This document shows, one piece after another, positions 6,133 through 52,962 of a stretch of DNA of 64,000 nt; the first letter of the stretch is position 1; every line of letters starts with the position of its first letter. Made by a program: the position numbers and the translations under genes. The stretch spans positions 9,920,001 through 9,984,000 of the forward strand of contig NC_134028.1 of assembly GCF_964204645.1 (NCBI RefSeq), read 5' to 3'. The DNA comes from Tubulanus polymorphus. Its lineage: Eukaryota; Animalia; Nemertea. Below the pieces are notes generated by a model that ran no database searches, had not been told where the DNA came from, and worked only from the letters and a program-made list of their open reading frames with translations.

Positions 6133-6143
6133 TGCGTTGTGTT

Positions 6144-6161: not shown

Positions 6162-6337
6162 TGTGAGATTTACGGGCCCAAACCCGGAGCTGTGATAGAC
6201 TGCTTCACGAATACAGAACCTAACGCTGTGAATTCTATACTACCACTGACTTTATTGTTCTCATGAAAATGTTACAGTGCTAAAGATCGACAAGGGTCGC
6301 TTCAACTGGGTCGACTTAAGGTCGACTGTCTCTGACA
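6162..6337 (-). repeat. 5' LTR (176 bp)
   Basis: Direct repeat of 256-431. Confidence 0.95.
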
Positions 6338-6542
6338 CGGACATCTCATTGATTGTATATTTGTCGTCGTCCTCGCGGGAAGCCGATTGTCCGTGCGGGC
6401 GCGTCCCCGGACAATCGGTACTGTAAATATATTTATCCGGACAACAGATTAGCGTATGTTCCGGAACCAAGTTAAATTATAAGTAAAATCGTTGTCCCCG
6501 GGAAACAGTTCCGGTCGTTATTTCCCGGACCACCGGGCTTTG

Positions 6543-11613: not shown

Positions 11614-12552
11614 ATAAAGATTTATTTATATTTGAACCCGCATAATATGTTAATAACTGGGGTAACCAATTGTGGTAAAACACATTTTATATTAGATTTG
11701 TTAGAAACTGTTTATATAAATCATTTTGATAATGCAATATTATTCTGCCCTACTTATGAAATGAATGAAACGTATAATAGAGATATAGTTTTTTAAGATA
11801 AAAGATTTATTATATCAAATCCTACTTCTGTAAAGAGTATTTTAGATAATTGTATAAAAATTGCATTAGATATTCATAATGGAACAAATGAAAGGCTGAA
11901 TCCAAGAACATGTCTATCGCACTTTTGAGCCCAAACGTCTACTTTTACTTAGTAGCCACTTGAGAACAATAAGCAATAAACGATATCATCTCTACTGCTA
12001 GTATGCACTATCGAAACCAGATGTTTCAAAATGGTCACTTTTCAATAGAAGACTCTTCGAAACAGCCACTATAGAAAACCAAAAGTGACTGTTTTGAAAT
12101 GTATACTACTGGAAAAGTAGCTGATATCGTTAATTGCTTATTGTTCTCAAGTGGCTACTAAGTGAAAGTAGACGTTTGGGCTCAAAAGTGCGATAGACAT
12201 GTTCTTGGATTCAGCCTTTCAAATACATTATTCATCATAGATGATTGTGCAAATTTACATGATTCAAAATACGAGAATTATGTTATTGAGCTTTTTCTGG
12301 TAGACATTTTGGGATAACAACATGGGTTTTAAATCAAAAATATAATTCAATTGCTAAAGATTTTACGGAGAATATAAGATTTTTAGTATTATTTTATAAC
12401 AAAGATTATAGCAATCTATGCAACAATCTCTGGAAGAAAATCAAATTATAATGACTTACATGATGAATATATGAATAAATTAAAAAATAATAAACGTTCC
12501 AAATTATTACTGAGCCTACAATTTCCCTATGAATACAAATTTATAAAATAAA
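11610..12552 (+). pseudogene. Polinton packaging ATPase (A32/FtsK-like), interrupted by a MITE
   Basis: Walker A GVTNCGKT, Walker B FIIDDC, SGRH motif. Confidence 0.88.
11890..12220. mobile_element. MITE with ~98-bp TIRs and AAAT TSD
   Basis: GAAAGGCTGAATCC...GGATTCAGCCTTTC flanked by AAAT; removal restores ATPase codons GTNTLF. A 4-bp AWWT TSD would fit Sola (inference). Confidence 0.9.
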
Positions 12553-12908: not shown

Positions 12909-13331
12909 CTAATTAGTAAATTCATATGCTACAAATATAACAATAACTGTTCCACCTAAAATCCATATTATTTCATATTGCTGTTGTTCTTTACTTGGGG
13001 TATAATAATCTGAAAATTTAGGTTTATATAGATATAATTTTTCACGATTTGTTACTGCGTTATATAAACTCATAGCATCATCAACTGACTTAAAATCTCT
13101 ATGTGAAATATTTTGGTTATATAATTCTTTATTAATATAATCCATATAATTTTGTCTTTTTTCTCTATATTCTTCTGCAGCTTTATTATATTTCTCTAAC
13201 GCTAAGTTATATCTTTTTTGTTCTGATAATGAACCATTTTTATCAATATGTTTAAATAAATAACCGCCACCTGTAAATGCTAAAGCGTTAACAATTGCCG
13301 ATCCTATAATAGTTATAATTGCAAATGCCAT
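12909..13331 (-). CDS. Conserved Polinton protein (hydrophobic N-terminus, coiled coil, C-terminal TM)
   Basis: Intact 140 aa; pseudogenised homologue at 25586-26008. Confidence 0.75.
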   Translation of the reverse strand: MAFAIITIIGSAIVNALAFTGGGYLFKHIDKNGSLSEQKRYNLALEKYNKAAEEYREKRQNYMDYINKELYNQNISHRDFKSVDDAMSLYNAVTNREKLYLYKPKFSDYYTPSKEQQQYEIIWILGGTVIVIFVAYEFTN

Positions 13332-13347
13332 TTATTTAGTAAAAAAA

Positions 13348-13954
13348 TTACGCGTCAACAGGAGGAATATATTTTTGTTTTTCCAAATAATCAATATTTA
13401 AATTAGATAAATTTACTGCTAATGTTAATTTCAAAATATCATTGATATCAAATCTATCAACACTAATATTTCCCATTTTAAATACTTTTTTTAATAACAT
13501 TGTATAACCAACAGTTCCAACTGATATAACCAACAGTTCCAACTGATAGTAATGCTCCATTATATGAACCAGTTATTATCCATTTCTGATCCGCCATTTA
13601 TAAAGAACAAAAATTACAATCCTCAAAATATTTAGTTATCTTAGTTACAATTATTTCAACATTTATGATATTGTTAGTTTCATTTTCATATATTTCAGTT
13701 TTTATTTTTTTAATATCATCGATAATAAAATCTTCATTGAATTCATAAAATCTCAAAGAATTTCTAATGAAATCAGTAATTTTTTCTACCTTATAAATTT
13801 CTTTATTTATCGTTGTTTCATAATCAAATGTTGTTTCATTAAAAAATGCAATATTTTTGATATGAGTTATTACATCATTAATATCAAATTTCATTTCTTT
13901 CTCACGTTTAAAATCAAATCAAAAACATATACTCGGCCCTGCTGTGATATTCAT
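13348..13954 (-). pseudogene. Two small Polinton ORFs (homologues of 25340-25561 and 24978-25336)
   Basis: Near-identical peptides (DRFDINDILKLTLAV; INDVITHIKNIAF). Confidence 0.7.
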
Positions 13955-13972
13955 ACCTATATATCAAAAAAA

Positions 13973-14772
13973 TTACTGTTTACATCTTATAACTCATTCA
14001 TAAATTACAGGAAAATTATTTAAATTAATTAAATATCCATTATGATTTCTTTTTTCTAATTTGAAATTATCAAATTGTGGAATACAAGGTTTAAAATCAC
14101 ATTCAGCTAAATTATAATTTATTTGCGTTCTAAATTGTTTAACATTTTTCAATGGTAGAATATTTAATATACTGGAATTACAAATTGTACCTTAAGTTGC
14201 TTCATATGTTTTTACGGGGTATATTAAATTACAATATATATTAATATGTGTAAAAGGTGTAAAAATTATATTTGGTATATTATTACATATTATATACTTA
14301 TATATTTGCTATATTATTACTATATTATTAGTATAGTTTATTTGGTGTAATTCCTAAAATTTTAGGTTATGGTTTCCTTACTATAAATTTATGTTGTTCT
14401 TCATTAGCTAACTTTATTCTTAATTCATTATCAATCACTTTTTACAAATTTAATTCCAAATCCAGCAGCTGCGCCCATTTTTGTCTTAGCTTTTCTATTA
14501 ATTTCATGTGCTAAAGTCTCTCAATTATATAATCCTGGTTTTATAAATAGATGATACCATTTATTCAATTTTCTTACATGAATCATAAAAGCATTATGAT
14601 CAAAAGTTTTATCTGTTACATTATAAAAACAATTACATAAACTTATATTTACTAATTTTAAATCTACACAATTTTTAAATTCTCTATCTAATTGCACTAG
14701 TTAATAATGAGATTAATAATTTGTAAGTTTTCTAGAATCAACATATATTCTATATTCTTTTAATTCAATCAT
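13973..14772 (-). pseudogene. Minor capsid protein (penton), copy A
   Basis: Reverse-complement homologue of 24202-24961. Confidence 0.7.
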
Positions 14773-14788
14773 TTATTTTACATATTTT

Positions 14789-15142
14789 TTATTCAAAATC
14801 TATGTCATGACATCCTTTTTCATTCTTACCTTTATATATGAAATAGAAATCACCAGAATACAATTCTTCAATATCTTCACTAGATAATCTGTGAAATCTG
14901 TCTGGTAAATATGTTCTGAATTTATATCTTTTTCCTTTTAATCCTTCATGTTCTAAGTGAATAACTTATTTATTACCATATCTATTAGTAATTGTTTCAA
15001 TATTTGTAATTAAATATATCTTATGTAATGTTAATTCTGTTAACTTTTTGAATTTATAATCTACAGATTTGACATTTGTAGTAACTTTAATTCTATCTAA
15101 GAATGATTTGTTGTTCTCACTGTGTACTTGTCTACTCTCCAT
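14789..15142 (-). pseudogene. Subterminal ~115-aa ORF, homologue of 30081-30407
   Basis: FKKLTEL..YGNK..YLPDRF..IYKGKNEKGCHDIDF; one internal stop. Confidence 0.65.
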
Positions 15143-15241
15143 TTCAATAAAAAATTTTTTATTAAAATTGATTTCATTTATGTATTATTCACGAATATGA
15201 TTTTCATTTATGTATGTTATTCATATTTATGAAATTATTAG

Positions 15242-15393
15242 AGTAATTGTATAAATGGGGGTTCAGATTAAAGGTTGAAAGGTTGAGTGAGTAAAAAATA
15301 AAAATAAATTCGAGCGTGCGAGAATTTAATTTTTATTTTTTCATGAGCTCGACCTTTCGACCTTTGATCTGAACCCCCATTAATACAATTACT
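15242..15393. repeat. 152-bp fold-back terminus of copy A
   Basis: AGTAATTGTATAAATGGGGGTTCAGAT...ATCTGAACCCCCATTAATACAATTACT; homologous to the copy B TIR. Confidence 0.8.
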
Positions 15394-16340
15394 GATGACT
15401 GCTATTTGTGCACGGTGGATCACGTTCCCGGATGACGCAGAAGCCGTCGTAGAGTGCGGAGTTTGTTATGAGTCCGGACAGCAGTGCCAATGCCAATACC
15501 GGAATTTAACGTGTGATAGCTGCTACGCACCAATATAGCAATCGGGAGGGAGAGTGCACACAGTATCATGCTGTGCCCCTACTGTCGGAATACCATTTAT
15601 TGGGCGCGGATGTTCGAAGAAAAACCCACTAAATTCATTTACATTATAGTTTTATTATAGAAGCTTAAAATATTTCACGATATATTTTTTTACAAATAAT
15701 CATTATCATTAGTTTTATTTGACGATAGTTTCGTAGTATCGCGTTCATTGTTACCGTGCCAATTCAATAAAAAGGATAAAACGTATAAGATCGAGTCGAT
15801 AATTGAAACTCGAGGTAAAGGCGCTCGAAAACAATACTTGGTAAAGTGGTATAACTATCCCGATAAATTCAATTCTTGGGTGAACGCTCGAGATATCAAG
15901 AAATCACCATGAGTCAGGATTATTAGGTGTATCTCAAAAGTGATGCTAGCATAGACATTCATCCCGATAATACGCAACATAGTTTTAAAGTCCGTTTACG
16001 AACACCGATTTCACTTCAAGGCAAATGGGTTTGTGCTTTACATCAAATACACTTTTTGGCTGATATCAATAACGTGAACAATGGAAGATTTCAATGTACG
16101 TCGTCTGAGCACGGAACTCATCATCTCGATATACCCACGGGGCGCTATTTGACAATTACTCAATTAATTGTCGCTTACAAGCAGAGTTAAACAAATGGTA
16201 CGGTGATAAGAGGGTTCTTGCATTCGATGTACTAAGTCATAAAATTAGTATCCGATTTTATGGCAACTGTTCGATAACCTTTACGAACGATTTTGCGTGG
16301 ATCTTGGGTTTTAGAGAAAATATACCGATTAACGAAAGTA
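15394..16340 (+). pseudogene. Fragment of a second, more GC-rich Polinton family: RING-like remnant, integrase chromodomain tail, penton N-terminus
   Basis: CGVCYES..CDSC..PYCR; YKIESIIETRGKGARKQYLVKWYNYPDKFNSWV; LKSDASIDIHPDNTQHSFKVRLRTPISLQGKWVCAL. Confidence 0.7.
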
Positions 16341-16359
16341 TATCAGATCTTCGCCAAGG

Positions 16360-16790
16360 CTCTAATATTCTCATAGTAAAAGTAAAGCGCGGCTAATATT
16401 AAACCTCCAGCAACTAATTAATGTTTCAAATCACTTTTCCAAGGAATGAAACCATCCATTTATTTAAGAAAAAAAAAATATTTAATATTTTATAATCATT
16501 TTTAAAATATTAAACTTTAAAATGATTAAATCAAATAACAATTAAGCTGTTATTCATTAACTAATTTCTCAATGTTTTAACTATTATATATTTGAAACAT
16601 ACAGCTTAATCTTTTTTCAATATAGAATTATCATTCTTACCATATTCGATATGTTTAATTGTTTGATAATGTTTTGATTTATGTGATCTTAAATATTTAC
16701 CCCGCAATAACAATACACTTTCTCATTAGGATTAAACTTTTTGAATTCATCATCTAAATCACATTGAATACCAATATCTTTATAAGAATT
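16360..16790 (-). pseudogene. Polinton fragment homologous to ~54420-54600 and ~55945-56140
   Basis: Minus strand encodes YKDIGIQCDLDDEF and MDGFIP..VAGGLILAALYFYYENI. Confidence 0.75.
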
Positions 16791-17135
16791 GCCGGGAGCT
16801 GGAAATATTTAGGTAAGCAAGCTATATCAGTTTACTTTAGTTAGCAGTATCTGTAGTGTAGGTTTATAGGGGTTATTTCTGAGTTTAATTACTTTATCTT
16901 TTAGTCAATCTTCAACTCATCACTTGTTAGTCGCTGTAAAATGTGTGTATGATGATACTGATATGACGATCCAGCAATTGTGAAAATAAACAATATTAAG
17001 TCAAGAAGAAGACGTCGCTGTTATCAATTTTCTTCTTTCGCCGCAACAATAGTTATCAATAGTTAAAAAGATTTCATATGAAATTTATGTATATCATATT
17101 TGGTTAAAATGTATACAACATAGGTTACGTGTACA

Positions 17136-17757
17136 TTGTTGTATTTTATTCTTATAGATGTGAGAGATATGGATTTTGCTGAGGTGTCGATGATATTGTT
17201 GCATGTTGGCACGAATGATATTTCGTGTGACGTTCTTTTAAGCAAAGTTTTGGAGAATCATCAGGTCCTGATAAAATTGATAAGATTTAAAGCGGGGAAC
17301 AAACCAGTTATTGTGTCGGGGGTTATGATACGCTATGACAGGTTTGAACATACAATGGCTATTGAAATCCTTTATCACAATAGAAGTAATGTTCAGTTTG
17401 AAAGTTGTCAGCATATATCACTCAAACTTCAATTCTTTTTTAGTGAAGAAATCATGATCGAAATTCCGCATTATAACATTATGCTACATCAACTTTGTGT
17501 CGATGAAGGTGTTAGTTTCCATTTATTTGATATGGCTCCTGAATTCATATCCAGGTAGATAATTTGTACCACTGATTTAACCAGAGTATAGAAGCTACAT
17601 CAATCAATGATTTGTTTTATTTTTTCAAGTTGTGATGGTATCCATCCCTCGAGACCAGGAAATCGGTATCTAAATTCAAGCATCGAGAAGCTGATTAAAA
17701 CTTTTGAAAATAAACAGGATGCAAGTTACATTCTTCAAAAGTTATTAATGATCGGTA
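17136..17757 (+). pseudogene. SGNH/GDSL esterase-like remnant
   Basis: LHVGTND (block III) and DGIHPS..GN (block V, ~17634). Confidence 0.6.
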
Positions 17758-17837
17758 AGTAATTAGAAGATGTGGGTTTCAGATCAGAGGTCGGAGGTCA
17801 AACACTCATCACCACAAGAAATTTTTTTTCCTTATAA

Positions 17838-20800
17838 ATGGGGGAGAATGAACACCAACCAGAAAACAATAATGTCAATAAAAATCAATATTATTGTCAA
17901 TATTGTAAAAAATACATCGATAAATACCAAAAATCACGACATGAAAAATCTGCAAATCATATAAAAAATGTAATAGATTTTGAAACTCCAGAAAATTCCA
18001 ATGAAAGAAAAGAACGATTAGAAAATATGAATGTGGATGAAATAAAATGTGAAGTTTGTAATGAATTTATAGTAAAAAGGAATTATAATAGACATCTCGA
18101 ATCACAAAAACATTATAAAAATTTAAATAAAAATGTTTTAGGATTAGAATATTTTGATAATAAACCTCAACAAGTAAAAGAATCAACTTCAAAAACTAAA
18201 TCCATTTCAAATAAACCTTACATGGAAAATGTTAGAAATTATATTGATTCACTAGAAATAAAAGATACAATTGAAATTTTAGAAACATTACATAGTAAAA
18301 TTGGTCCTGCAGCTATTATATTTAGATTTTTTAAAGGTACAACAATAGAAGATTATAGTAAATTTAATGAAATAATAGAAAAAATACTAGATTTGATAAC
18401 AGATGTTGAATATCCAAAAATTAGTATCTCTGGGAAAGTAAGTTTTATAAAGTCAGGAGAAAAAATGGATTATAATATTCAAACACTCTCTGAAGAAATA
18501 ATTTCAAAAACACAAATAAAAGAGAAGTTAGAAAAAATATTTAATGAATTTAAACGTCATATTGAAGAAAGATATTTTGAGGGTTCTGGCTTAACATTGA
18601 ATGAAATTATATATTTAGATTTAAATGTTTATAATACAAAAAGAAATAAAACATCAAAAAGTAATAAAATGTTTAAAAATGATTCAAACTTTACAACAGA
18701 AAAGGATATTAAAGCATCATCTTATATTAAATTACCATTTACAACAAAAGCAGTAATAAATATTCAAAATGAAGATAATAAATGTTTTCTATGGTCAATT
18801 ATTAGTTGCTTACATCCAACACAGGAAAATGTTTGTAGAATAACAGATTATCGGAAATATGAAACATTATATAAAATTGATCAATATCCAGTAACTATAA
18901 AAATGATTCCTAAAATAGAAAAAGTTAATAATTTAAAAATAAATGTATTTGAATTAATGCAATTACCAAAGACAAAAGGTGAAAATATTAAAGATTATAC
19001 ATTGGAATCTTTATATTTAACAGAATATTATGATGATGAAAATGCTATAGATTTGTTATATTACAAAAAAGATGAAAATGAACATTATATGTGGTTAAAA
19101 CAAATTGATTTATTCTTTAGAACAGAAAGTGATCATCATCGTAAAATTTATCTATGTAGAAAATGTTTATCTAAATTTATGACTGAGAATACATTATAAA
19201 AACATAAAGAATTATGTGATAATAAAGATTTTTTTAAATTAATAATGCCAACAGAAAAAGATTATAAATTGAAATTTACTAATCATAAATTTAAAAATAT
19301 TATTCCATTTGTAATTTATGGGGATTTTGAATCGTTGAATAAAGAATTAACTGATCAAGATAGAAAAGAAATATATAACAAAAAGCAATTATTAAAATCA
19401 ATGGATAAAGGAAATGAATTAAATGAAGACACAATACAAGACCCACCAATTATAAATACAATTAAAAAAGTTCATCAAAGAGCTGCTGCTTATGGAATTT
19501 ATATAAAATCAAATTATCCCGAATTATATGAAAGTCAATATATTTCTTTTAGAGGTGAAAATGTAGTTAATGATTTTTGTGATAAAATGATTGAATTAGA
19601 AAGTGATTTTACAAAATTATTAAACAAAAATAAAAGAATAGTTATGACAAAAGAAGATGAAATTGATTTTAATTATGCAACTCATTGTTGTTACTGTGAA
19701 AAACGTTTTTATTCATTTGATAAAAGAGTTAGAGATCATGATCATTTGAATTCAAAATATCGTGGAGCTGCTCATGAAGATTGCAATTTACAAGCTAAAA
19801 AAGTAAATTTCGTACCAATATTATTTCATAATTCATCAGGATATGATACCCATCTATTTATAAAACAATTATCGGGAAAATTGGGTGCAATTAATCAAGA
19901 AATAGAAGAATATAATACTATGAATGGTGTAAATGTAAGAAAATATGATTTTAAACTATTAGCTAAAACATCTGAAAATTATATTTCATTTCAATTTGGT
20001 TGCATTAGATTTTTAGATTCTTATAGATTTCTAGCAAGTTCATTAGATAATTTATCAAAAAGTTTAGTTGATAATGATTTTGTTATAACTCGATATTATT
20101 ATCCAAATGAACAAGATTTTAAATTATTGAGATATAAAGGCGCAATTCCTTATTCATTTTATAAAACACATAATGATTTTAATGTAACTGAATTATTAAA
20201 AGATCAATTTTATGATCAATTAAAAGAGGAGTATGTGAAAGATGAAGTGTTTAATAGAACATTAAATATTTGGAACCATTTTAAGATGAAAAATCATGGT
20301 GAATTAGTTGATTTATATTTAAAATCAGATGTTATGATATTGGCTGACATATTTGAAAAATTTAGAGAAGTTAATTTGAATCATTTTAATGTTGATCCTT
20401 GTTATTGTTATTCAAGTCCTGGTTTAACCTGGCAATGTGGTTTAAAATATACAAATGTAGAATTAGATTTATTAAAAGAACCAGATATGGTTTTATTATT
20501 TGAAAAATCAATTAGAGGTGGAATTAGTGGTGTTATGGGAGATAGGTATTTTAAAGCAAATGATGAATATAAATTATTATATATTGACGCCAATAATTTA
20601 TATGGTTGGGCAATGATGCAACCTCAACCACATAAAAATTTTATATTAACAGAAGTTGAAAATGGTGATAAAACTGATTGGGAAAGCGCAATTGCGAGTT
20701 TAAAAGATGAAGCACCAATTGGTTATTTCTTTGTAGTTGATTTAGAATATCCTGAAAATATAAAGTTTAAAACAAGAAACTTACCTTATTGCCCAGAACA

Positions 20801-22835
20801 TTTAACTGTAGATGATAGTTATTTAAGTGAATACCAGAAGAAAATAAAACCGAAAGATCATGTTTTTACAGAAAAATTAATACTTACTCAAAATAATAAA
20901 TACAATTATATTGTTCATTATAGAATGTTAAAATTTTATCTGAAACAAGGAATGAAATTAAAGAAAGTACATAGATATATTGAATTTAATCAATCGAGGT
21001 GGTTAGAAAAATATATAGATTTCAATACTCAACAGAGAACTATATCAAAAACAGATTTTGAAAAAGATTTTTTCAAATTGATGAACAATAGTTTTTATGG
21101 AAAAACATGTGAAAATATTAGAAATAGAAATGATATTGAATTAGTAAATAATTCTGAAAGATTAAGACATTTACAATCAAGTCCTAGACATTTAGGAAAT
21201 AAAAGGTTTGAAGATTATTTAACCGCGGTAAAATTAAAAAGAACGTCAATGAAATTTAATAAACCTATATTCATTGGTTCAACTGTTTTAGAAATAACAA
21301 AATTATTAATGTATGATTTTTATTATAATGTTTTACAACCACTTTTTGGGGAAAAGCATATTGAAATATTATATTTTGATTCTGTAACAGCTGATACCCC
21401 AATATTATTAAAATACAATAACCAAATATTAATAAGAAGAATTTCAGAAATAATTCCAAAACAAAATGAACTTTATATTTCATATGGTGAAAAAGAATTA
21501 ATACAAATAAATGGTTTAATAGATGTTTGGACAAGAAATGGATGGAAAAAATTAAAGAATATTATTAGACATAAAACAAATAAGAAAATCTATAGAGTTA
21601 GAACTAAATTAGGGTTCGTAGATGTTACAGAAGATCATAGTTTAATTAAACGAAATGGTGATGAAATAAAACCAACTGATATAAAAATTGGAGATGAATT
21701 ATTACATAAAAGATTTTTCCCAAGAATGAATCATATATCATTTGATGAAATAATTGATAATATTTATAATATAGAACCCGAAACATTAGAAGAAAAAGAA
21801 TATTTTATCAAAGGATTTTTCATGCAATCAAGACTTAAAATTATTAGAAAGAATTAAGAAATTCTGTGAAGAAGTTTATCCAAATAAAACATTTAGAATC
21901 ATGGATGTTATGAAATCAACAGCAGTTTATAGAATACTTGTAAATAATCCTAAAGATTTTGCTATAAAATATAATGATGAATTCTATATTCATGCAATAG
22001 TGAAAAGTAATACTTCAACTAAAGAAAAAATAGTACCAGATTATGTATTAAATACAAAAAATAATTTAAGAAAGTGGTTCTTCATTGGATTCTATGCCGC
22101 AGATGGTTCAAAAAGTTTCCAAAACCGCAAAACCATATCCTTTGCTCAAAAAGGAAAAGTTGCTATATCAGGATTGAATATATTATGTAGTTTATTAGGA
22201 TTTAATATGAATATAGAATTAATTAAATCTAAACAATTGTTTTAATTTAAGGCATGTAGAAAAAGAATTAACAGAAGTTAAAGATTTATTTGAAATATAT
22301 AACCCAACTGACTATGTTTATGATTTATCAACAGATGATGGAACATTCAATTCTGGGTTCCCATTAATCCAAAAAAAATACCGATAGTTACATACTAAAA
22401 ATCAAGACAAATGATATAACAAAAGACTTAAAAACATTAAAACATCATTTTGATTTTAGTAACTACCCTAAAAATCATGAATTGTTTAGCAATGATAATA
22501 AAAAGATTCCTGGTAAATTTAAAGATGAATTAGGAGGTGATGAAATGATTGAATTTGTTGGGATAAGAAGTAAAATGTATAGTTACAGAACAAAGGATCA
22601 TGAAGCTAAAAAGTTAAAAGGAATAACAAAACATGTGGTTGATAAACATATAGAATTTCAAGATTATATAAAGTGTTTATATAAATCAATTGTAATGAAA
22701 CACAAAATGAATTGTTTAAGATCAGAAGATCACGAGATGTACATTAATGAAGTTGAAAAAACTAGTTTGAATCCATTTGATGATAAAAGGCATATTTTAG
22801 ATGATGGTATAAAAACATTACCTTATGGCTATTAA
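17838..22835 (+). pseudogene. polB: Protein-primed family B DNA polymerase (pPolB) with intein
   Basis: N-terminal Zn fingers, EGSG, NKCFLWSI, Exo I YGDFES, RDHDH..GAAH..CN, FHNSSGYD, YIDANNLYGWAM, KLMNNSFYGK, YFD/TDS, KLKG; in-frame TAA 19197-19199; frameshifts within the intein. Confidence 0.95.
21381..22379 (+). mobile_element. Intein with degenerate LAGLIDADG homing endonuclease in pPolB motif C
   Basis: YFD|SVTADTPILL (block A), VDVTEDHSL (block B), FIKGFF and FFIGFYAADGS, YVYDLST..GTF..KN|TDS (blocks F/G, needs removal of one A from the A8 run 22371-22378). Confidence 0.93.
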
Positions 22836-23447
22836 AACATAAAATCAATATCATCAAACTCGAAATCACTATTGTCTTCTTCATTTTCATTTAATTGTTT
22901 AGGTTCTTCTTCCATTCCATTTTTTTCATTTAAATAAAGTTCTATCTTGTTCCACATTTCATCTCGCTCTCTTTGTTTCTTTTTGTTTGTTAATTCATCA
23001 AATGGAATTATAATATCTAGGTTTAAATAATTTACAATCTTATTTAAAAATAATTCATAATTTATTGAATCTGTTATTCTATTTTCCAAATGATATATTA
23101 ATATTTGTTTGAATATTTTTTTTTATATTTTCTATATCTTCTTCTGTTAATTTAGGTTTTTCATAATAATCGTTAAATAATAAATATAAATACATTTTCT
23201 TTTCTTTTGTGTTTAATGTTGACGGAATAATTGTATTTATAATATCTTTTTTAGTTATTTCACCATTTTCATTTTCTATTATTTTCATTTTTTCAAGCCA
23301 TTGCATATATTCTAATGTATGATCTTCTATAGAAAATATTTTAAAAATTTCATCAAGATAATTTAATTTTGGTTCTATGATAAAATCTCTAGTTTTTTCT
23401 TCGCCCCATAAATTCCTTTGCCATCCACAATCAACACAAAATAACAC
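22832..23447 (-). CDS. Two small hypothetical Polinton ORFs (85 and 122 aa; possibly fragments)
   Basis: ORF track; viral-like codon composition; acidic tail. Confidence 0.45.
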
Positions 23448-23461
23448 AGTACCTTCTTGTC

Positions 23462-24133
23462 TTAAGGTCGTATAATAACATTGTGGGCATTTTGTTTATA
23501 AATTATTGGTAATAGATCTTCATTAAGCTCTTGGTATTTTCTTACGTTTTCTTTATGTTTTATTGTTCTTTTATGTAGATTTGAATTACTTGTTGTAATA
23601 ATCAATTTACAATATTTACAATAATATGTTTTTCTTGTTAATTCATTATATTGTTTTTCTAACTTTTCAACTGTTTCTTCATTATCTGGTAACGTTTTCT
23701 TATATTTTATTTTTTCTAATAAATTATTTTCTCTTGCATTGAATTCAGTTTCAAATTTATTAGAAATTTTATCTATATGTGCTTTACGAAATTGATGATT
23801 CTCCCAATCTTCTATATTTTCAGGGCTATATTTTATTCGACAAGGCTCACAGAAATGATCTTTTATATTATCCTTATCATAGAATAAGAAAGGTCTTTTC
23901 CAAATAATTTCAGGTTCAACTTCAACAGAATTACTATCAACATTAGCCATTGCGCCATTAATTCTACACTTCTCTAAATGTTTTTTAACATAATTTCTTG
24001 AGAATAATTTATTACATTTTGGACAGTTTAGTTTAGGGGGTTTATAATTTTCTTCATGTTTTTTCATATGTCGAGCCATATTACTTTTTCTTAGAAATTC
24101 ACCACAAATTTCACATGCTATCTTCGCATCCAT
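23462..24133 (-). CDS. Multi zinc-finger (C2H2-like) protein
   Basis: CEIC..HMKKH, CPKC..HLEKC, CEPC..H..H, CKYC..HKRTIKH; TAAATG start. Confidence 0.75.
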   Translation of the reverse strand: MDAKIACEICGEFLRKSNMARHMKKHEENYKPPKLNCPKCNKLFSRNYVKKHLEKCRINGAMANVDSNSVEVEPEIIWKRPFLFYDKDNIKDHFCEPCRIKYSPENIEDWENHQFRKAHIDKISNKFETEFNARENNLLEKIKYKKTLPDNEETVEKLEKQYNELTRKTYYCKYCKLIITTSNSNLHKRTIKHKENVRKYQELNEDLLPIIYKQNAHNVIIRP

Positions 24134-24201
24134 TTATTAAGGAAAAATTTTATTAAAATTAATTTTTAGTGATGAGCGGTAATTTTTTTATGTTATAAAT
24201 A

Positions 24202-24961
24202 ATGGTAGAATTAAAAGAATACAGAATATTTGTTGATTCTAGAAAACTTACAAATTATAAATCTCATAATTTATTAGTACAATTAGATAGAGAATTTAAG
24301 AATTGTGTAGATTTAAAATTATTAAATATAAGTTTATGTAATTCTTTTTACAATATATCGAATAAAACTATTGAACATAATACTTTTTTAATTCATATTA
24401 GAAATATAAATAAATGGTTTCATCTATTTCTAAGACCAGGATTATATAATTTAGAAACATTATCTCAAGAAATTAATCGTAGAGCACGGTTGAAAATTAG
24501 AAAAAGATGATAAATTTTTAATAAGATTTATAAAAAGTGATAGCTCAAATAGAATTAAATTAAAGGTATTTGATGAAAGTCAACATGCATTTATGGTAAA
24601 AAAACCTATAGCTAAATTGCTAGGAATTGAACCAGATGTTGTTACAGTAAACGTAGAAGGCATTTCAAATATAATACCTTTTACACATTTTTATATTTAT
24701 TGCAATTTAATCGATCCTACAAAAGCATTTGAAGCAACTAAAGATACAACATGTAATTCTAGTATATTAAATATTTTACCATTAAAAAATGTTAAACAAT
24801 TTGGAACGCAAATAAATTATAATTTAGCTGAATGTGATTTCAAACCTTGTATTCCTCAATTTAATAATTTTAAATTAGAAATAAGAAATCATAATGGATA
24901 CTTAATTGATTTGAATAACTTTCCTGTAATTTATGAATTAGTTATAAGATGTAAAGAGTAA
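24202..24961 (+). pseudogene. Minor capsid protein (penton), copy B
   Basis: NSFYNIS, PGLYNLETL, LLG, FYIYCNLID, IDLNN pattern typical of Polinton pentons; break near 24510. Confidence 0.72.
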
Positions 24962-24977
24962 TTTTTCACCTATATAA

Positions 24978-26008
24978 ATGAATATAACTGTTGGACCGAG
25001 TATATGTTTTGGATTTGATTTTAAACGTGAGAAAGAAATGAAATTTAACATTAATGATGTAATTACACATATCAAAAATATTGCATTTTCTAATGAAACA
25101 ACATTTGAGTATGAAACAACAATTGATAAAGAAACTTTAAATGTAGAAAAGATTACTAATTTAATTAGAGAATCTTTAAGATTTTATGAATTAGAAGATT
25201 TGAAGATTTTATAATCGATGATATTAAAAAAATTATAATTGAAATATATACAAATGAAACTAGTAATAAAATAAATGTTGAATTAATAATCACTAAGATA
25301 ACTAAATATTTTGAAGATAGTAATTTTTTTGATTAATAAATGAGTGATAATAAGTGGATAATAACTGGATTATATAATGGCGCATTACTATCAGTTGGAA
25401 CGGTTGGTTATTCAATGGTATTAAAAAAAGTATTCAAAATGGGAAGTGTTAATGTTGATAGATTTGATATCAATGATATTTTAAAGTTAACATTAGCAGT
25501 TACTTTATCTAATTTAACAATTGATTATTTGGAAAAACAAAAATATATTCCTCCCATATAAATGCATAATTTTTTTGTTAAATAAATGGCTTCTGCAATT
25601 ATAACTATTATAGGATCGGCAATTGTTAACGCTTTAGCATTTACTGGTGGTGGTTATTTATTTAAACATATTGATAAAAATAGTTCATTAGGAGAACAAA
25701 GAAGACATAACTTAGCGTTAGAGAAATACAATAAAGCTGCAGAAGAATATAGAGAAAAGAGATAAAACTATATGGATTACATCAATAAAGAATTATATGA
25801 TCAGAAGATTTCACACAGAGATTTTAATCAGTTGATGATGCAATGAGTTTATATAACGCAGTAACAAATAAAGACAAATTACATCTATACAAACCTAAAT
25901 TATCAGATTATTATACCCCAAGTAAAGAACAACAGAAATATGAAATAATTTGGATTTTAGGTGGAACAGTTATTGTTATATTTGTTGCTTAAATAATTTA
26001 CTAATTAG
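24978..26008 (+). pseudogene. Three small conserved Polinton ORFs (24978, 25340, 25586)
   Basis: Syntenic with 12909-13954 of copy A; 25340-25561 intact, the others disrupted. Confidence 0.7.
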
Positions 26009-26027
26009 TAATTTTTATTCTAAATAA

Positions 26028-26489
26028 ATGGAAGATAAAGTTGATAGTATTGATATTATTCCTCATGATATAAATAAAACTAAATTAAAAATATATTTAG
26101 AAAAACAAATATTAGAATTTGAAAGTGACTTAAAGATAAAAAAGAAAAAATATTTAAAAAGTAAAATTATATATTATTTGATTATAAGTGGTTCGGTTAC
26201 AATTAGTTCTGTAATAACATTTCTAGCAATATTCAGCCCATTAACACCTTTAGCTATATCAATTGGTGTATTAGGATTAAGTTCAAGTGTTTTAACCGGT
26301 ATAAGTTCAAAATTAAATATAAAAAGTAATAAAGAAAAAATTAAAACTAATATAAAAGAAATTAATAAATTAAAGAACACACTAGATTATATAATAAGTT
26401 TAAATGGTCATATAACAGTTGAAGAACAAGATAAATTATTAAAAGAATTAATAAATTATCAATTTTTTAATTATATAAATGGTAGATAG
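26028..26489 (+). CDS. Polinton protein with two-TM hairpin between coiled coils
   Basis: 153 aa; TAAATG start; truncated homologue ~12760-12890. Confidence 0.7.
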   Translation: MEDKVDSIDIIPHDINKTKLKIYLEKQILEFESDLKIKKKKYLKSKIIYYLIISGSVTISSVITFLAIFSPLTPLAISIGVLGLSSSVLTGISSKLNIKSNKEKIKTNIKEINKLKNTLDYIISLNGHITVEEQDKLLKELINYQFFNYINGR

Positions 26490-27867
26490 TTTTCCAAAAG
26501 CTTTCCATAATAATAAATTAATTAAATATAATATTCCAGCAATAGATTTTAATAAAGATATTACATATAGAAATGAAGTTTTAGATTCATTAACTAATTT
26601 ATATATTTATGTTACTGAAACTAATAATTTTAGTGCAAAGATGGAAAATATATTTCATGTATATTTAATTAATTTTAAAAAATTGAAAGATGAAAAACAA
26701 TGGTTATTAAAATCTAATATGAAGTATTGGCAGAATCAATTAAATTTTGCTGTTTATTGTGCAACAACAGGATGTGGAATTAGTTGGAATGATCATTTGT
26801 ATAATTCTAAATATAAATTAATTCAAAGTTTATTTAGATTTCATACATACTTTCAAATCAGAATATTATTAAATGAATTAGAGTGCGCTTTACCAGGATC
26901 AAGATATTTTAAAGAATTAGATAATAATATCAATTTATCTAAGTTTTATAAAATTTGCAATGAATTTAATATAGATATAAATAATTCTGATTTTAGAACA
27001 AAAATTGGAACAATAAGATCACTTCCTTGCCCTAAAAAGATTGCAGAATATTGTGCACTTCCCATACCATCTAATAGTTTTTATAATATCTATAATAATA
27101 AATTAGGTTATGGTAAAATAGAAACAAAGGATTTAGAAACATTAAATTTCAATAAATTACCGAAATTTTATGATAATTTAAAACAAGAAAACAATAATGG
27201 TTGGGTTTATTTTATTTTAGAAAATAGTGAAGGTTTTACTAAATCAGGTATAGAAAGAATAAATCAATCTATTAGAACTTATTTGATATGTATTCTAGGA
27301 TCACAAGTTGAAACAAGATCACCGATAATTGGAAATTTGAATACATCATTTGATACACAAAAACAGTTTAAAGTTTTATTTGAAGATTCAATTCATAATG
27401 ATAAAAATAGATCGATTCCAGAAAACATTATAAGATATCAAAATTATTTAGATAAATCTCATGTAAGACTTAATTATTGTATAGGCCCTAATCTATTAAT
27501 TATTTCTAATGATTTAGTATTAAAGATGGGAAATATAATTGGTTATAATAATCTAATTAAAACTGCAACAATAAATAATTCATTTGGATTGAATGATATA
27601 AATAAAAAGGTTATTACTGCTCCAAAATTAATGGAAGGTGAAAAAAATAAAAAACACATTCAATCAACTGAAACTAAAACTAAGAATATTAAATTAAATA
27701 ATGATTCTAAAATAAAAGATTACAATACATCAGAAAATAATAGAACTGATAAAATTCAACATGATATAATTAAACTAAATGATGATATTAAATCCCATGA
27801 AAATACTAAATTAGCTATAACTTGTATAGGAATTGTAATCGGAGGAATATTATATTTTAAATTTTAA
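26479..27867 (+). CDS. Conserved Polinton protein of unknown function (462 aa, C-terminal TM)
   Basis: Intact ORF with YWQNQLNFAVYCATTGCGIS; close homologue at 63509->64000. Confidence 0.8.
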   Translation: MVDSFPKAFHNNKLIKYNIPAIDFNKDITYRNEVLDSLTNLYIYVTETNNFSAKMENIFHVYLINFKKLKDEKQWLLKSNMKYWQNQLNFAVYCATTGCGISWNDHLYNSKYKLIQSLFRFHTYFQIRILLNELECALPGSRYFKELDNNINLSKFYKICNEFNIDINNSDFRTKIGTIRSLPCPKKIAEYCALPIPSNSFYNIYNNKLGYGKIETKDLETLNFNKLPKFYDNLKQENNNGWVYFILENSEGFTKSGIERINQSIRTYLICILGSQVETRSPIIGNLNTSFDTQKQFKVLFEDSIHNDKNRSIPENIIRYQNYLDKSHVRLNYCIGPNLLIISNDLVLKMGNIIGYNNLIKTATINNSFGLNDINKKVITAPKLMEGEKNKKHIQSTETKTKNIKLNNDSKIKDYNTSENNRTDKIQHDIIKLNDDIKSHENTKLAITCIGIVIGGILYFKF

Positions 27868-27883
27868 TTTTTTTATTATGTAA

Positions 27884-29098
27884 ATGGATGTAGAAGGTGG
27901 AGAAGATTATGAAATGGGAGAAATGGGAAATAATAATGAAGGATATATTGATGATGATTATAATGATGCAGAAACTAATATTGATAATGATGATGAATCA
28001 GCATATAATTCTAATTTAACTACACCTCAATATATTGAGAAAACACGTTCAAAGATAAGTATTGAAAATGAAGTACCAGAAATAACAGAAAAAGAATACA
28101 ATTATAATGAAATTATTCATGAATTTAAACCAATATTAAAAAGATCTGGTTTCAATATAACAAATAAAGGCATGAATTATTTAGTAAAAGATTTAAAATA
28201 TTTAAATGGTGATTATTATTGGAAATTGAAAGGCGACTATTATTTTAAGATTTCAAATCTTAAAAGTAGCGATAAAATAATATCACAATCAACTTTTAAT
28301 TTATTTAAACCAGATAGAATTAAGAAAATCATTAATGATGTTATAACTGATGTTACATAAGAAGAAAGAGATGATAATATAAAAGAATTTAAACAAAGAA
28401 ATGCTAATTTTTGAAGATAATTAATGTAAATTTAAGACAAAAAAAATTCCTAAAGAAGTTATTAATTCCAAAACTAGTAAACCTAATTCAAGCGAAGTTC
28501 AAACTGAAAAACTTTTACCAAATGGATTACTTGATGCAACAGATCAACAATTAGAAGATTTAAATATATTTTCTGATAAAGCAATTAGAGAAATTATTAG
28601 TATAAGACTTGCATCTGATAAAATTGCACATGATAAAAGTATAAGAGATTTTAAGATTAGAACTTTAGAAAAAGAATTAACTGATAAAAATAAAGAAATA
28701 GAACAATTAAAGACTGATTTAGATCATCAAGTAATTGATGAAATAGAATATAAACAAAAAGAATTACGTTTAGAAAAAGAAATAGATGAACACATTGAAT
28801 GGTCTCGACAATTAGGAATTAAATCACAAGAATATAAAAAAGCTGTAAAAGAAAAAATAAGTAATAAAAATGTTAATAAAAATGGTGAAAATATTGTTAT
28901 TTCTACTCCTTCTGATAGTAGAATATTTGATAAATATTTATATTTTACAGTTGGATTTGTAATTGTATTCATTTTGATTGGGTGTAATTGGTATAAGAAA
29001 TCAAATAAAATTCATGATATTAGTAATTCTGAAACAACTGCTATCAAAAATGAAAATACTTCTGAAATTCCAAAATTAATAATAAAAAAAATGGATTA
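27884..29098 (+). pseudogene. Deletion-fused remnant: N-part of the acidic/coiled-coil gene joined to the C-part of the small TM gene
   Basis: 27884-28785 matches 63486-62600; from ~28794 matches 52425-52123. Confidence 0.8.
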
Positions 29099-29459
29099 AT
29101 ATTTTAGAAAAAAAGCAAAAAAAATAATTGAATATCTCACTACTTTTGTCTATCTATGTGGAGCAATTAAATTGTCCAGATAAATCATTTCGGATTCTAG
29201 ATATTCATTATCTTTATTAATTTATTTTGTTTTTATTTGAATATTTGAATTTGAATTTGTTAATCAATTAACATAGTAATTGATTACTAATTTGATTAAA
29301 AATTATATCATAATTAAGTTAAAAATACATAATTCATTTATCAGTTTTCATTCTTACATTCTTTTCATTCGGAATAATTTATAATTTCAAATTTCACATA
29401 TTTTTTTAGCACCAACAACATTTACTTAGGTGTTTTAGCTAAGTATATAAGGCAATTCA

Positions 29460-29740
29460 TTCAACCACTGGAGTAGCTCTGGCCAGCAGAGGCATTTTGA
29501 AAATGCACCTTCGTCCACTCTCCGGGTTTCTCCTTCGGTTTCGAATTTCGAGATTGGTAGAAATTACATTAGGCGCCTTTAATATAATGTGATTTCTACC
29601 AATCATTGAAGGAGATCCCGGTTGACGTGGGTCGCCGGGGGTGTAAGTAGAAATGACTGGGGATAAGCGTCCCGTGGCGCCTTTCAATAATGGGATGCTT
29701 ATCCCCTGAAAACTCTGTAGGTCGAGGATAGGGCAATTTT
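29460..29740 (+). ncRNA. Candidate structured non-coding RNA (long rod plus two GGCGCC-loop hairpins)
   Basis: Hairpins 29552-29604 and 29659-29706; outer stem 29504-29645; covariation with copy C; G-U pairs on this strand only. Ends approximate. Confidence 0.6.
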
Positions 29741-30080
29741 GCTAAAACTTACTGTAAAAACATTGAAATATTCCTTTTAATCACGAGAGAATGATGACTA
29801 TCCTCCTGTCGTCACGGCCGAGCTAATTTAAATAAACCTCGTTTTCAGCAACTAATGAAAACGCAGTAGTTCAATACCGGCTAACTGGCTTGTGTGTGTT
29901 GTATGTACTGCGTGCTTATTATATAACAACAACGTTGTGCAACACCTGTTTAATTGATCAATATTCAAATGAAGCACTCTCTTATAATAATATGTAACAG
30001 ATGTACTGTATGATTGTAGTTGTTTATAAAACGACTAAGGTCATTTTGGATTCTAGATATTCATTATTTTTATTTTTTAT

Positions 30081-30407
30081 TCAATCAACAATTTCTAAAT
30101 CATGATGACCGTCTTCATTTTTCCCATGATATATTATTTTAAATCCTACTAAATCTTTAAATTCCTCCGTACTCAATGAAACCCATTTATCGGGTAAAAA
30201 CACTTTAAATTCTCGCGATGTACTAACATTACAGTAGCTTAAATTAGCTGATACTTTCTCTCCATATTTAGTTTTTATCTTTTCTAATTTCAATATTTTA
30301 TGTTCAATTTCTTTTGTAACATCAACTAACTTTTTTATTTCAAATTGTTTTTTTGCTGGTTTTATTCTGTTATTTATTGTTGCTAAGAATGCTTTTCTAT
30401 CTCCCAT
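30081..30407 (-). CDS. Subterminal 108-aa Polinton protein
   Basis: Start codon lies inside the TIR; copies at 47996 (frameshifted) and 50854. Confidence 0.75.
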   Translation of the reverse strand: MGDRKAFLATINNRIKPAKKQFEIKKLVDVTKEIEHKILKLEKIKTKYGEKVSANLSYCNVSTSREFKVFLPDKWVSLSTEEFKDLVGFKIIYHGKNEDGHHDLEIVD

Positions 30408-30493
30408 TTATAAGGAAAAAAAATTTCTTGTGGTGATGAGTGTTTGACCTCCGACCTCTGATCTGAAACCCACATCTTCTAATTACTTCGGTA

Positions 30494-33400
30494 TTATACT
30501 AATGATGAACAATTGTATCCCGGTACCTGGTATTCAATCATCGCATATTATGTTGCAAATGCAAATGCTTAACAAACCTTTTGATTTCAGAATGTGCCCT
30601 TATGGCATTGTCTTTCACTATGAACTTCAGAAGTTAATCGCTAATCGAAGATTTTGGAAAAACAAGGTACCATTAATACTCGGGATTGTTGTTCTGCTTA
30701 TTTTAGAATAGGGTTTGTGGATTTCCTTGATTTGTTTAGGCCTATGCATTATTTTACTGGTCATTTACCTAATGCTGACTGTTATTACATAAGACAATTA
30801 CAATTTCTAATGTTTTCTTACATTCAGAGATTACACAAGATGCAGAAGGCGAAAGGAGATGATCAGGTAATTATAGAAATCATTGTACTTTACGTATGTC
30901 AGTAATGCAATATTATCTACCAGTTTTTATTTAATTTTTCCTATTTTTTCTTGCATTGCAGTTGATTTGGAGACCGAAAATATTTGAAGATAACATAGGA
31001 TCATCACCATCACATGTAAGAACCGTTTTCACAGCGTTTATTTGCTATTTACTGTTAATCTATTATTAGATAATTGAATTTTTCTGTGTTTAATTTTGAT
31101 CAGCAATTGGTCACATTGTAAAGGTCCATGACAGAGTGTGAGTTATTACTGTACTCTTAACATCATTTATGTGTCGAATCATATCAACAATTGTACCACC
31201 GTATTAATAATTTCAGAAAATCAGAAATGCAATTGAATTTGTGATATGATTCCTGTATGAAAGATCCTCTTAATTTCAGCTCCCCAGATTTCCGAAGCGG
31301 AGGGTTGCCACAAAATACAGTCAGGAATATGGATCGGCAAGCTGAATCTACTCACAGAAATTCTTGTACTGGTGGGGGATATGATCGTCAAGACCTTTAA
31401 AAGCAGTACATTCCAGCAACCAAGCATTCTGAGAGTGCACAATTCGTTAGTTGTAGGTGTGATAGCACGGATCCTGACCGTTGCAAGTATATGCCGGATC
31501 AGGCACAAATTAGTATAATTAGAAACACCCTGCAACAAAAGCTCGAAACTGATTAAAACATATATGTCTTACTTGACTATGGGTGTTTTACGATTCAAGG
31601 TATTGATAGGTTTAACATGTTACATAAACTTAAAAGAGAAAAATTGTCGTATGTAAATGAAAGTGAATGGTTTCTTGATAAAAATTTTAATATACAAAAT
31701 GCTCTTTCTCCTATCGATGAAAATTCAATATGTATGTTTGAATCCATAATAAGGGAACATAAGTCCACTGAATCCTATAGTATTTTAGAATCTGATGTAT
31801 CAGTTGAGGACTTGACTAGTCTTACCTGTGACCATTGATATAATTCAACTATTATGCTTCTTTTCAAATCACTTATAAATAGAAGCTAAAGAACACGTTC
31901 ATGTCTACTACATGCTAAAATCGTTTATGCCATCTTTGTTTGCTGAAAAAATTATCAAAGAATTTGGACAAAATCTATTGGAAAAATGTAACTCCTTGAT
32001 ATTTTGCATGTTGGGAGACTACCTGGTAGTAAAACCTATTTAAATAAAGCAAATATTAATTGTAAAACTGAAGTTGGCAACCATTTTGCTTTAGCTGTTT
32101 ATTCTTGTTGAGAGTCAGACTCTTACCTATGTTGACACGTGATGGCCATGATAGTTCGGCCATGATAGTTCCAGTAATAACTCAGCAAAACAGCATGTTT
32201 GTAATGAAAACTGCTCTCCTTATTACCCTTGGCATACATGTGGTAATTTTTGGGGCATGTTTAGCGGCTAGTAACCTAGAGATCTTTCAGTCACTGACCA
32301 ATAAAGAATTTTCGAGTGATTGTGTCAGTGGATATCTTTATTTGAGAAACATTAGTCATTATTCACATTTTTTAAGACTTGTGTTGATTGATTGGCTTAT
32401 GACTTGTGAAATTGACTTGAATAAACTCTATGATACAAACCTGCAATCATCTCAAATACCGGGGGTAACCAATGTTAATGATATACATGTTATAGTTCCT
32501 AGTGACAACTCGAGGGCCCCATTTTCAATTTTGCATGATTTATCTAGTGATAAAGAACCTGAAATATGCAGTAATAGTTTGAACACTGATGAGTTAGATT
32601 GTACAAAAACTACTGGTGTATCAAAATGTTTTGAAGGCAATTCAGAGGGATGTTCTCCGGCGCGCACAATAACTAATTTGAACAAATGGATTGAAATATT
32701 CAACATACCAAAAAAAATTGTTGCATGTTTTTCAAAAAATCCAGAGGTTTCATTCCATTAAAAATTTACATAACTACAATTACGTATGTATATTGGGACT
32801 TCATCTCTTATTTTTCTTGTAATCATCAGGGCAAAGAAGATAAAAATGCTATTTCTCGTATCAAAGAGTTTTTTTCTTCATCAGAATGTGAAGAAAAGGT
32901 TTTGAACTGTTTCAGAAAATTCAAAGTGCCTGCCACTTTACTAGATGACATAAATGAGAAAAATATTACTGATTTTATCCATGGTACCCCAAAGACAATA
33001 ACTAGTAAAAAGCATGTTCTCCTCCGCTGTTAATTAAAGAATGGGCAAACTGTTGTAAAATAATTTCCGATATCTGATAACAATCCTAAAGGAGCACTGG
33101 AAAAAGCTGTTGCATTTCAATCGGACCCTAACTTTCCTTCATGGCTGATATCAAAACTTCACGAGCGGATGGCGAAGTAGCAGTTGGTTCAGAATGTCAA
33201 AAGTATTTCGATAATTTCAGATTTGATTTTACTAAAAGATTGATAATTTCTAAGAATATCCAGTTTATACACTCAACTTCTACATTGAAGTTCTCTGTGG
33301 CAGAACACGCTAATTGGGGTAGAACACATAGATTTGATGAAACCTATCAATTTGTGGAGCAACGTGAACCAAATAATATTCCTGCTGTAATCATGCATAT

Positions 33401-52491: not shown

Positions 52492-52962
52492 TTATTATAG
52501 AAATATTTTTGCTTTCAATATTTGAAAATGTTATAACTCCAGTTGATAATTATGTCATAAATCCACCTAATTGAAATGATAAATATCAGTAATATGGGTA
52601 ATGGGCTTTCAAGCCAAAGGTCGAACGGTCGAGCTCATAAAAAATGAAAAACATGAAAATAATAACAATTTCTACTTGAATTAGTCGCGAAACTCATAAA
52701 AAATGAAAAATAATTCTCACACGCTCGAATTTATTTTTCATTTTTACTCGCTAAAAAAAGTGTGAGTTAAGTGTGAGTGAAATAAATTCGAGCGTGTGAG
52801 AATTATTTTTCATTTTTTATGAGTTTCACTCCTAATTCAAGTAGAAATTGTTATTATTTTCATGTTTTTCATTTTTTAATGAACTCGACCATTCAACACG
52901 ATAAGGAGAGAATCCCACAATGATAATAAAAAGTCCGAAAATGAAACTTCGAGATAGTAGTT

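Follow-up and report, generated by a model that had tools for sequence, protein, structure and literature searches.

The window, by which we mean the whole stretch of 64,000 nucleotides that was analysed, harbors at positions 17758 to 30487 (+ strand) a deletion derivative of a Polinton, here called element B. The element is bounded by terminal inverted repeats (TIRs) of 88 bp (17758-17845 and 30400-30487; 98.9% identity over 89 bp) and by the 6-bp target duplication TCGGTA (17752-17757 and 30488-30493). It contains a pPolB gene encoding a type B2 polymerase (DNA_pol_B_2 match, E 4e-18), and no capsid, integrase or ATPase gene. By its pPolB, TIRs and target duplication, element B is a Maverick/Polinton. 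The rve integrase, the A32 ATPase and the double jelly-roll capsid missing from B itself are present in its family; rve and Pox_A32 matches were obtained with elements A and D and with a metagenome relative, L008. The capsid protein model of L008 matched the PBCV-1 capsid (E 7e-15; double jelly-roll type), and the corresponding gene exhibited 80% nucleotide identity to positions 60825-62069 of the window. B2 polymerase, rve, A32 ATPase, double jelly-roll capsid, TIRs and a 6-bp duplication are features shared with the Maverick/Polinton group (Eupolintoviridae, adintoviruses) as far as the available parts of two accounts describe it (PMC8502044, PMC11296320). The pPolB gene of B is no longer intact: a stop lies at 19199, and the frame changes within an intein, which resides at about 21381-22379 at the conserved YFD/TDS motif (TIGR01445, 33.9 bits at a cut-off of 24.5; weak LAGLIDADG match). 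Element B is also a mosaic with a joint at 28783-28789, where the capsid-integrase-ATPase block is missing; its left part is 79% identical to D and its right part about 96% identical to C.

Several other elements were detected in the window. A BEL/Pao LTR retrotransposon (888-6141), whose presence agrees with a host of animal origin, probably an invertebrate, is accompanied by 177-bp direct repeats (256-432 and 6162-6338), a 333-bp palindromic MITE (11889-12221) resides within the ATPase gene of element A, and short palindromic units at 15242-15393, 49734-50044, 52588-52897 and 58081-58304 possess ends like Polinton termini. Elements D and C seem to be the halves of one interrupted element, with a gene split between them by one of these units. 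A nested unit (53761-58125) comprises 726-bp inverted repeats (97%), a tandem array (54628-55943) and a 170-bp near-perfect palindrome (57239-57408). A GIY-YIG fragment of probably Penelope-like origin (53318-53791) adjoins the island copy C2 described below.

The GC-rich island studied here (29460-29740) has convergent ORFs on either side; it lies 750 bases short of the right end of B and is absent at the other end. In the upstream ORF (28425..29099, + strand, 224 aa), two genes that L008 possesses as separate units are fused at about 28785; the C-terminal part of the ORF matches a small 130-aa ORF of this relative. Element A harbors the same upstream ORF with the integrase directly after it. 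The terminal ORF (30081..30407, - strand, 108 aa, no assigned function) is convergent with the island and 70% identical to the first ORF of L008. Outside the island there is a non-coding conserved element of about 80 bp (29127..29205, without strand assignment), which is 91% identical in A (9250-9328) and 86% identical in L008 (2451-2532) and occurs also at about 49170-49240. It is better conserved (86-91%) than the surrounding genes (70-83%), is found in three gene contexts and contains a small invariant hairpin with no informative covariation. A B-only 90-bp insert with an 8-bp hairpin (29795-29890) and a small hairpin 3′ of the island favouring the + strand (30004-30045) both gave weak energies.

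Folding of the + strand of 29460-29740 yielded -126.4 kcal/mol (z -8.95), a value reached by none of 200 shuffles, and folding of the - strand -98.2 kcal/mol (z -6.60). A rod and two hairpins, which the original prediction had read from the letters, were recovered by folding at the same positions. Domain I (29504..29645, + strand) starts with the rod, whose helices are formed by 29504-29518 with 29627-29645 and by 29529-29539 with 29605-29615. The rod opens into a junction with a 4-bp side hairpin (29541-29551, 3-nt loop) and with hairpin 1 (29552..29604, 20 bp), whose 13-nt loop (29572-29584; GGCGCCTTTAATA) begins with GGCGCC. A linker of 13 nt (29646..29658), in which positions 29646-29655 are unchanged in C (0/10), leads to hairpin 2 (domain II, 29659..29706, 17 bp) with a 14-nt loop (29676-29689; GGCGCCTTTCAATA) also beginning with GGCGCC. 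The fold is multi-branched, and DNA palindromes aside, nothing alike was present elsewhere among 283 scanned windows. Energy asymmetry alone proves little, since one 200-nt window of the MITE (11901) showed a strand difference of 25 kcal/mol. The longest ATG frame within the island comprises 49 codons. The predicted ncRNA would have about 270 nt (29470..29740, + strand), with a start deduced from the TATA spacing and an end at TTTT; its 5′ and 3′ ends are base-paired in the predicted folds of B and of C, although the letters involved differ.

Two further copies of the island, C1 (48602..48880) and C2 (51457..51735), are located on the - strand. C1 contains an extra hairpin of 20 nt in the junction (48789-48808), outside the stems, and is devoid of 16 nt near the 5′ end, while C2 belongs to a tandem duplicate of C1 that spans 2,849 bp. 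As the duplicates are 99.4% identical (17 differences, four of them within the island, P 0.07), the copies represent two independent versions of the island, B and C, and not three. The sense strand of C1 gave -122.4 kcal/mol (z -7.13) and the other strand -77.9 kcal/mol (z -2.40). Retention of pairing was studied on five helices with 63 pairs, which were defined on B alone and then read in C. For the rod of B, the folding model partly builds in the absence of A-C pairs; reading the helices in C is the fair test. Despite 20 stem substitutions, 62 of the 63 pairs were kept in C, compared to 55.9 +/- 1.3 upon random placement of the substitutions (P 2e-5). Forty-eight pairs were unchanged, nine were altered on one side and still paired, five were compensatory and one was broken; none had turned into A-C. 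Random placement would have produced 0.97 compensatory pairs instead of five (P 4e-4). In an independent pair count, 98.5% of the cells were paired, as against 41-50% in controls with slid partners. Hairpin 1 of C displayed four compensatory and two wobble changes, each arm being altered at 5 of 20 sites, and hairpin 2 five wobble-type changes and one break, with four changes in the 5′ arm and two in the 3′ arm. The expectation that the stems of C had diverged while pairing was kept was thus borne out.

It had further been claimed that all non-Watson-Crick pairs of the two hairpins are G-U. The numbers given for B (three) and C (six) were reproduced, but the claim does not hold without exception, as hairpin 2 of C exhibits one G-A break when it is read in the 17-bp register of B. 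The assertion that a decaying DNA palindrome would not leave G-U pairs only was corroborated by seven DNA palindromes and TIRs within the window, which served as control and gave 12 G-T and 14 A-C mismatches. Arms of the island aligned by sequence alone gave nine G-T and no A-C, one of the nine G-T coming from the rod rows, which aligned poorly. The sense strand of C reached z -8.3 with RNA parameters and -3.3 with DNA parameters; its full fold comprises 21 G-T pairs. Folded as DNA, B gave z -10.3 (sense) and -8.2 (antisense). Judged by these sequence comparisons, the island very probably forms a strand-specific structure on the + strand that has been selected for RNA pairing. Of the two readings offered originally, ncRNA or ssDNA signal, an RNA structure on the + strand has gained support and the ssDNA reading has been weakened.

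Between B and C, the island differs at 46 of 238 sites (19%), about five times the value of neighbouring DNA. Six coding and non-coding flank stretches differed at 44 of 1,151 sites (1.5-5.5%; Fisher P 1e-14 against the island). When only A/T sites were counted, 22 of 124 differed in the island and 18 of 726 in the flanks, and CpG decay consequently does not account for the divergence. The divergent block extends from about 25 bases past the sequence TATATAA (29444) to exactly the TTTT at 29737. Since the 19% of the island equals the 21% separating the left parts of B and D, an exchange of alleles between subfamilies at the conserved ends explains the divergence as well as fast drift does. Whether by exchange or by drift, the island behaves as a module. 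It lies within an 856-bp segment whose edges are 34-bp direct repeats (29185..29218 and 30041..30074, + strand) with 94% identity to each other; C contains the repeats as well (35 bp, spacing 818). The repeats suggest an acquired cassette, and the segment is likely, judging by its edges, to be an accessory cassette of some family members. The island was absent from the kept 6 kb of A and from 10,466 bases of L008, both of which are incomplete elements. DNA contigs of sequencing run X1, which together with run X4 belongs to one study and is possibly the source of the window, included one B-like piece (two differences), one that is C-like and several that diverge further. In some of the latter, matching starts at 29442 or stops at 29752, the same boundaries as those of the divergent block. 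The summed contig depth in X1 amounted to 2,000-3,400 for the cassette, compared with 13,000-31,000 for the ORFs flanking it, depth not being copy number, and one X4 contig joins 29197 to 30075. These two observations are hints of cassette-free relatives and were not counted as evidence.

Attempts were also made to recognise transcription signals. TATATAA (29444..29450, + strand) is identical in B and C and is a candidate promoter element, though a frequent sequence occurring 14 times on the + strand of B. TTTT (29737..29740, + strand), at which the divergent block ends, is a candidate terminator. Together they have the layout of a Pol III type 3 gene (U6/7SK type), in which the TATA box lies about 25-30 bases 5′ of the start. 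A scan with consensus patterns disclosed no A box or B box on the + strand of B or C, so that a TATA-led Pol III promoter is assumed. No snRNA genes were found in the window. An internal TTTT (29495..29498, + strand) is present in B and in a deep B-type contig of X1 but not in C. It is an argument against simple Pol III termination at four T, though such termination depends on context. The boundaries originally proposed, TATATAA and TTTT, do bracket the divergent block, but this is qualified by the internal TTTT of B and by the failure to find A and B boxes. Gene starts of the form TAAATG, after a T run, were found at 13 of 15 ORFs (>=70 aa) of L008 and at 8 of 16 of B, broken pieces included, the background being 33 of 376 ATGs (L008) and 36 of 501 ATGs (B), under 10%. 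The ORFs of B concerned include those at 17838, 26028, 26479, 27884, 24133 and 30407. TAAAT, which we take to be the poxvirus late initiator, suggests in this position that the family depends on a helper-virus polymerase rather than on host nuclear transcription. The sequence TATATAAGG of the island is without the TAAA core, and the island would thus need a different polymerase. No paper on TAAATG starts in animal Polintons was found in a search of the open-licence literature. The original prediction had noted neither these gene starts nor the hypervariability of the island nor its flanking 34-bp repeats.

Both loops open with the self-complementary hexamer GGCGCC on unrelated stems. The hexamer was unpaired with a probability of 0.97-0.99 in all six loops of B, C1 and C2, and its free duplex of 6 bp has -14.1 kcal/mol. 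Among random 13-nt loops, 11.5% contain a palindromic hexamer of any kind and 1% a GC-only one. None of the 12 hexamer sites was changed (P 0.08), and loops and linker together were changed at 2 of 37 sites (P 0.017). Kissing of the GGCGCC loops is plausible but weakly supported, and the twin loops may descend from one duplication. In a geometric model, the rod of about 33 bp, facing hairpins of 20 and 17 bp with a slack linker of 13 nt, would allow an intramolecular kiss, and the kissing helix could be bridged by the 7-8 A-rich bases that follow each hexamer.

Searches for relatives gave the following results. Rfam yielded nothing at gathering score in the 64 kb, three chance matches lying off the island; within 28000-31000 the best hit (E 0.32) was off the island and none was on it. 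This outcome of a check proposed with the original prediction is consistent with the island not belonging to a known Rfam family. No tRNA was found. Identities as H/ACA, Sm-site, sbRNA, SRP or 7SK RNA were dropped as a motif or an Rfam match was missing. A model of the island, R1, matched only the three copies of the window. Neither an R1 match nor a GC island was detected in 10,466 bases of L008, a stretch that stops 1,017 bases before the end of the locus, a possible place for the island. Scans with loop patterns gave 1, 6 and 0 loci in IMG/VR, 0 in metagenomes and 1 in GTDB; these eight loci were rejected as homologues, since none matched R1 and the folded ones were without the hairpins. 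Protein-led locus searches gave nothing in IMG/VR or GTDB and at least one metagenome locus, L008, among the matches listed. blastn against phages did not match the island. Thus, no island homologue outside this Polinton family was found in the IMG/VR, metagenome, GTDB and phage searches. Searches of the open-licence literature disclosed no paper on a Polinton promoter or on a structured ncRNA encoded by a Polinton. A word search in the available parts of PMC8502044 and PMC11296320 disclosed no element ncRNA, promoter or intein.

We tentatively interpret the island as a stand-alone ncRNA gene of about 270 nt in an accessory cassette, whose product would be made by Pol III and act as a decoy; we assign this reading a probability of roughly 0.35. 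Observed are the fold of one strand, the preservation of pairs, the turnover of letters and the boundaries of the cassette. From them we infer transcription itself, the polymerase and the decoy role. Provided that the + strand RNA structure is under selection, a transcript of its own appears somewhat more probable than its absence, and, given such a transcript, a decoy is slightly favoured over other roles. Transcription of the + strand by host RNA polymerase III would begin after the TATA box and end at the T run. The long duplex arms would present a shape-based decoy to host double-stranded-RNA sensors or the RNAi machinery, selection would act on helix length, letters aside, and the stems would be free to drift; instead of such drift, subfamilies might exchange whole alleles at the conserved blocks around the TATA box and the T run. 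Free letters at kept helix length would be the pattern expected of a decoy for sequence-blind dsRNA-binding proteins. Loops and linker would be sequence-specific contact points, and through its GGCGCC loops the molecule would either fold back on itself or be linked to other copies.

The closest comparison for the decoy reading is adenovirus VA RNA I/II, as described in the available text of PMC7589676. VA RNA, too, is a small, GC-rich, highly paired non-coding unit, borne by a linear dsDNA element that is protein-primed and belongs to the same broad lineage, with a terminal stem, a long apical duplex and a T4 end, and its letters vary between types. Its terminal stem and U4 end (PMC7589676) have a counterpart in the terminal stem followed by four T predicted for B and C, B also having the internal T4. 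The island differs from VA RNA in its length (about 270 nt versus about 160), in an upstream TATA instead of internal boxes A and B, in lacking the conserved GGGU-ACCC stem and in possessing two long arms, twin palindromic loops and an accessory cassette (PMC7589676). GGGT occurs in B and C1, where it is paired in the rod, and ACCC in C only. Membership in the VA RNA family was rejected on account of the missing boxes, GGGU-ACCC stem and Rfam match. By analogy, the island may nevertheless work like VA RNA.

Among the rival explanations, an unlikely one regards the island as acting in cis within RNAs that read through from the upstream + strand genes. The polymerase of a helper large DNA virus would start at TAAATG and stop imperfectly, and the structure would serve in 3′-end formation, as a nuclease block or in stability. 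This would account for the internal TTTT, and it agrees with the TAAATG starts in L008 (13/15 ORFs) and B (8/16), with the G-U strand being the sense strand of the upstream genes and with the position between convergent ORFs. Virophages have promoters and polyadenylation signals in common with their helper (PMC6510173), and Polinton-like viruses have been found together with entomopoxviruses (PMC11296320), as far as the available parts of these sources go. Nevertheless, no alike structure follows other genes in the 283 windows or the 10,466 bases of L008, the upstream ORF of element A runs directly into the integrase, and the divergent block has its own TATA and T run as limits. Distinctly less probable is a self-assembling RNA, a swappable two-armed molecule that would form rings or chains through kissing between its twin GGCGCC loops and act as a self-polymerising scaffold for a packaging motor or replication site. 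That both loops, on unrelated stems, expose one and the same self-complementary hexamer fits such a model, as does the layout of a 142-nt domain, a 13-nt linker and a 48-nt hairpin near a genome end, which resembles that of pRNA. The pRNA of phage phi29 consists of 117, 13 and 44 nt, its helices vary and its loops matter (PMC5066667, in the text available). Island and pRNA thus have in common a branched large domain, a 13-nt linker, a small hairpin domain (142 + 13 + 48 nt in the island), a place near the genome end of a protein-primed replicon, variable helices and kept loops (PMC5066667). However, pRNA kisses by two different loops (CE and D) of domain I, whereas those of the island are identical, self-complementary and one per domain, its junction carrying one long loop and a 3-nt loop. 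The family has no portal/gp16 motor but a Pox_A32-type ATPase and a double jelly-roll capsid, and the cassette with its direct repeats looks accessory and dispensable, which an essential motor part would not. The frequency of chance palindromes (11.5%; GC-only 1%), the P value of 0.08 for hexamer invariance and the possible duplication of the loops weaken the model further. Palindromic loops start retroviral dimers, and the stem-loops concerned (HIV-1 DIS, MPMV pal SL) likewise expose a GC-rich palindromic hexamer, according to the part of PMC3884649 available; unlike them, the island has two loops per molecule, of 13-14 nt, with the hexamer flush with the 5′ strand (PMC3884649). Moreover, a Polinton is a DNA element and has no RNA genome to dimerise. 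If the scaffold reading were true, the RNA would be the first pRNA-like molecule in a eukaryotic double jelly-roll virus lineage, with a use in packaging or in soaking up dsRNA-binding proteins of the host or helper virus.

Processing of the island by Drosha or Dicer into small RNAs from both hairpins is improbable. The stacking of a lower stem of 11 bp and an upper one of 20 bp that ends in a 13-nt loop comes near pri-miRNA geometry, and the changes in hairpin 2 are mostly in the 5′ arm (4 vs 2). Kept loops and varying stems are, however, the opposite of miRNA precursors, both arms of hairpin 1 have changed (5/20 sites), the place where cutting would occur carries a side branch, and there is neither an Rfam miRNA match nor a clear arm target in the window. 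There is only a small chance that the island is a neutral, MITE-like fold-back whose arms were re-matched by template switching and whose G-T excess stems from strand-biased deamination. Several palindromic MITEs are present in the window, the island lies between the arms of an 8-bp inverted repeat (29432-29439, 29741-29748), and the four C1-C2 differences within it (4/17, P 0.07) hint at mutability or read error. Apart from this 8-bp repeat, though, the island shows neither the TIR and target-duplication structure nor the unbiased decay by which it could be identified with a known MITE: no target duplication lies beside the repeat, the fold is multi-branched and its mismatches are G-U only, whereas the real MITEs of the window gave G-T 12 : A-C 14. 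Compensatory G-C/A-T swaps require the opposite mutation class. The four hexamers of B and C1, all of which contain CpG, have not changed, and CpG sites do not account for the rate. Hardly more credit can be given to an ssDNA signal for binding or pausing on the strand displaced in protein-primed replication, which would rank slightly below the neutral fold-back. DNA tolerates G-T better than A-C, and B folds well as DNA on both strands (z -10.3 and -8.2). Yet C loses most of its stability as DNA (z -3.3) and not as RNA (z -8.3), its full fold has the 21 G-T pairs, and the island lies 750 bases from the terminus and is missing at the other end. Very remote is a T-box-like capture of tRNA 3′ ends by the loops, for which GGCGCC would be the start of a retroviral primer-binding site. 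The MPMV primer-binding site complements tRNA-Lys, T-boxes pair UGGN with NCCA, and loop 2 reads TGGCGCC; the match ends after 6-7 bases, though, loop 1 has A where TGG needs T, and Polintons prime with protein. GGCGCC falls in the MPMV primer-binding site and is predicted to dimerise retroviral RNA there (PMC3884649, available part).

If the decoy reading proves correct and the island is really transcribed, it would be an independent counterpart, in an animal Polinton, of the VA RNA strategy, or of a pRNA-like one. Adenoviruses and other DNA viruses of eukaryotes are believed to derive from ancestors to which Polintons stand close. A real transcript would also provide a small marker for the activity of integrated copies. 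Letters changing five times faster at a kept fold make the island a compact case of shape-only selection or cassette exchange, and the TAAATG starts raise the question of a poxvirus-like helper dependence of this Polinton family.
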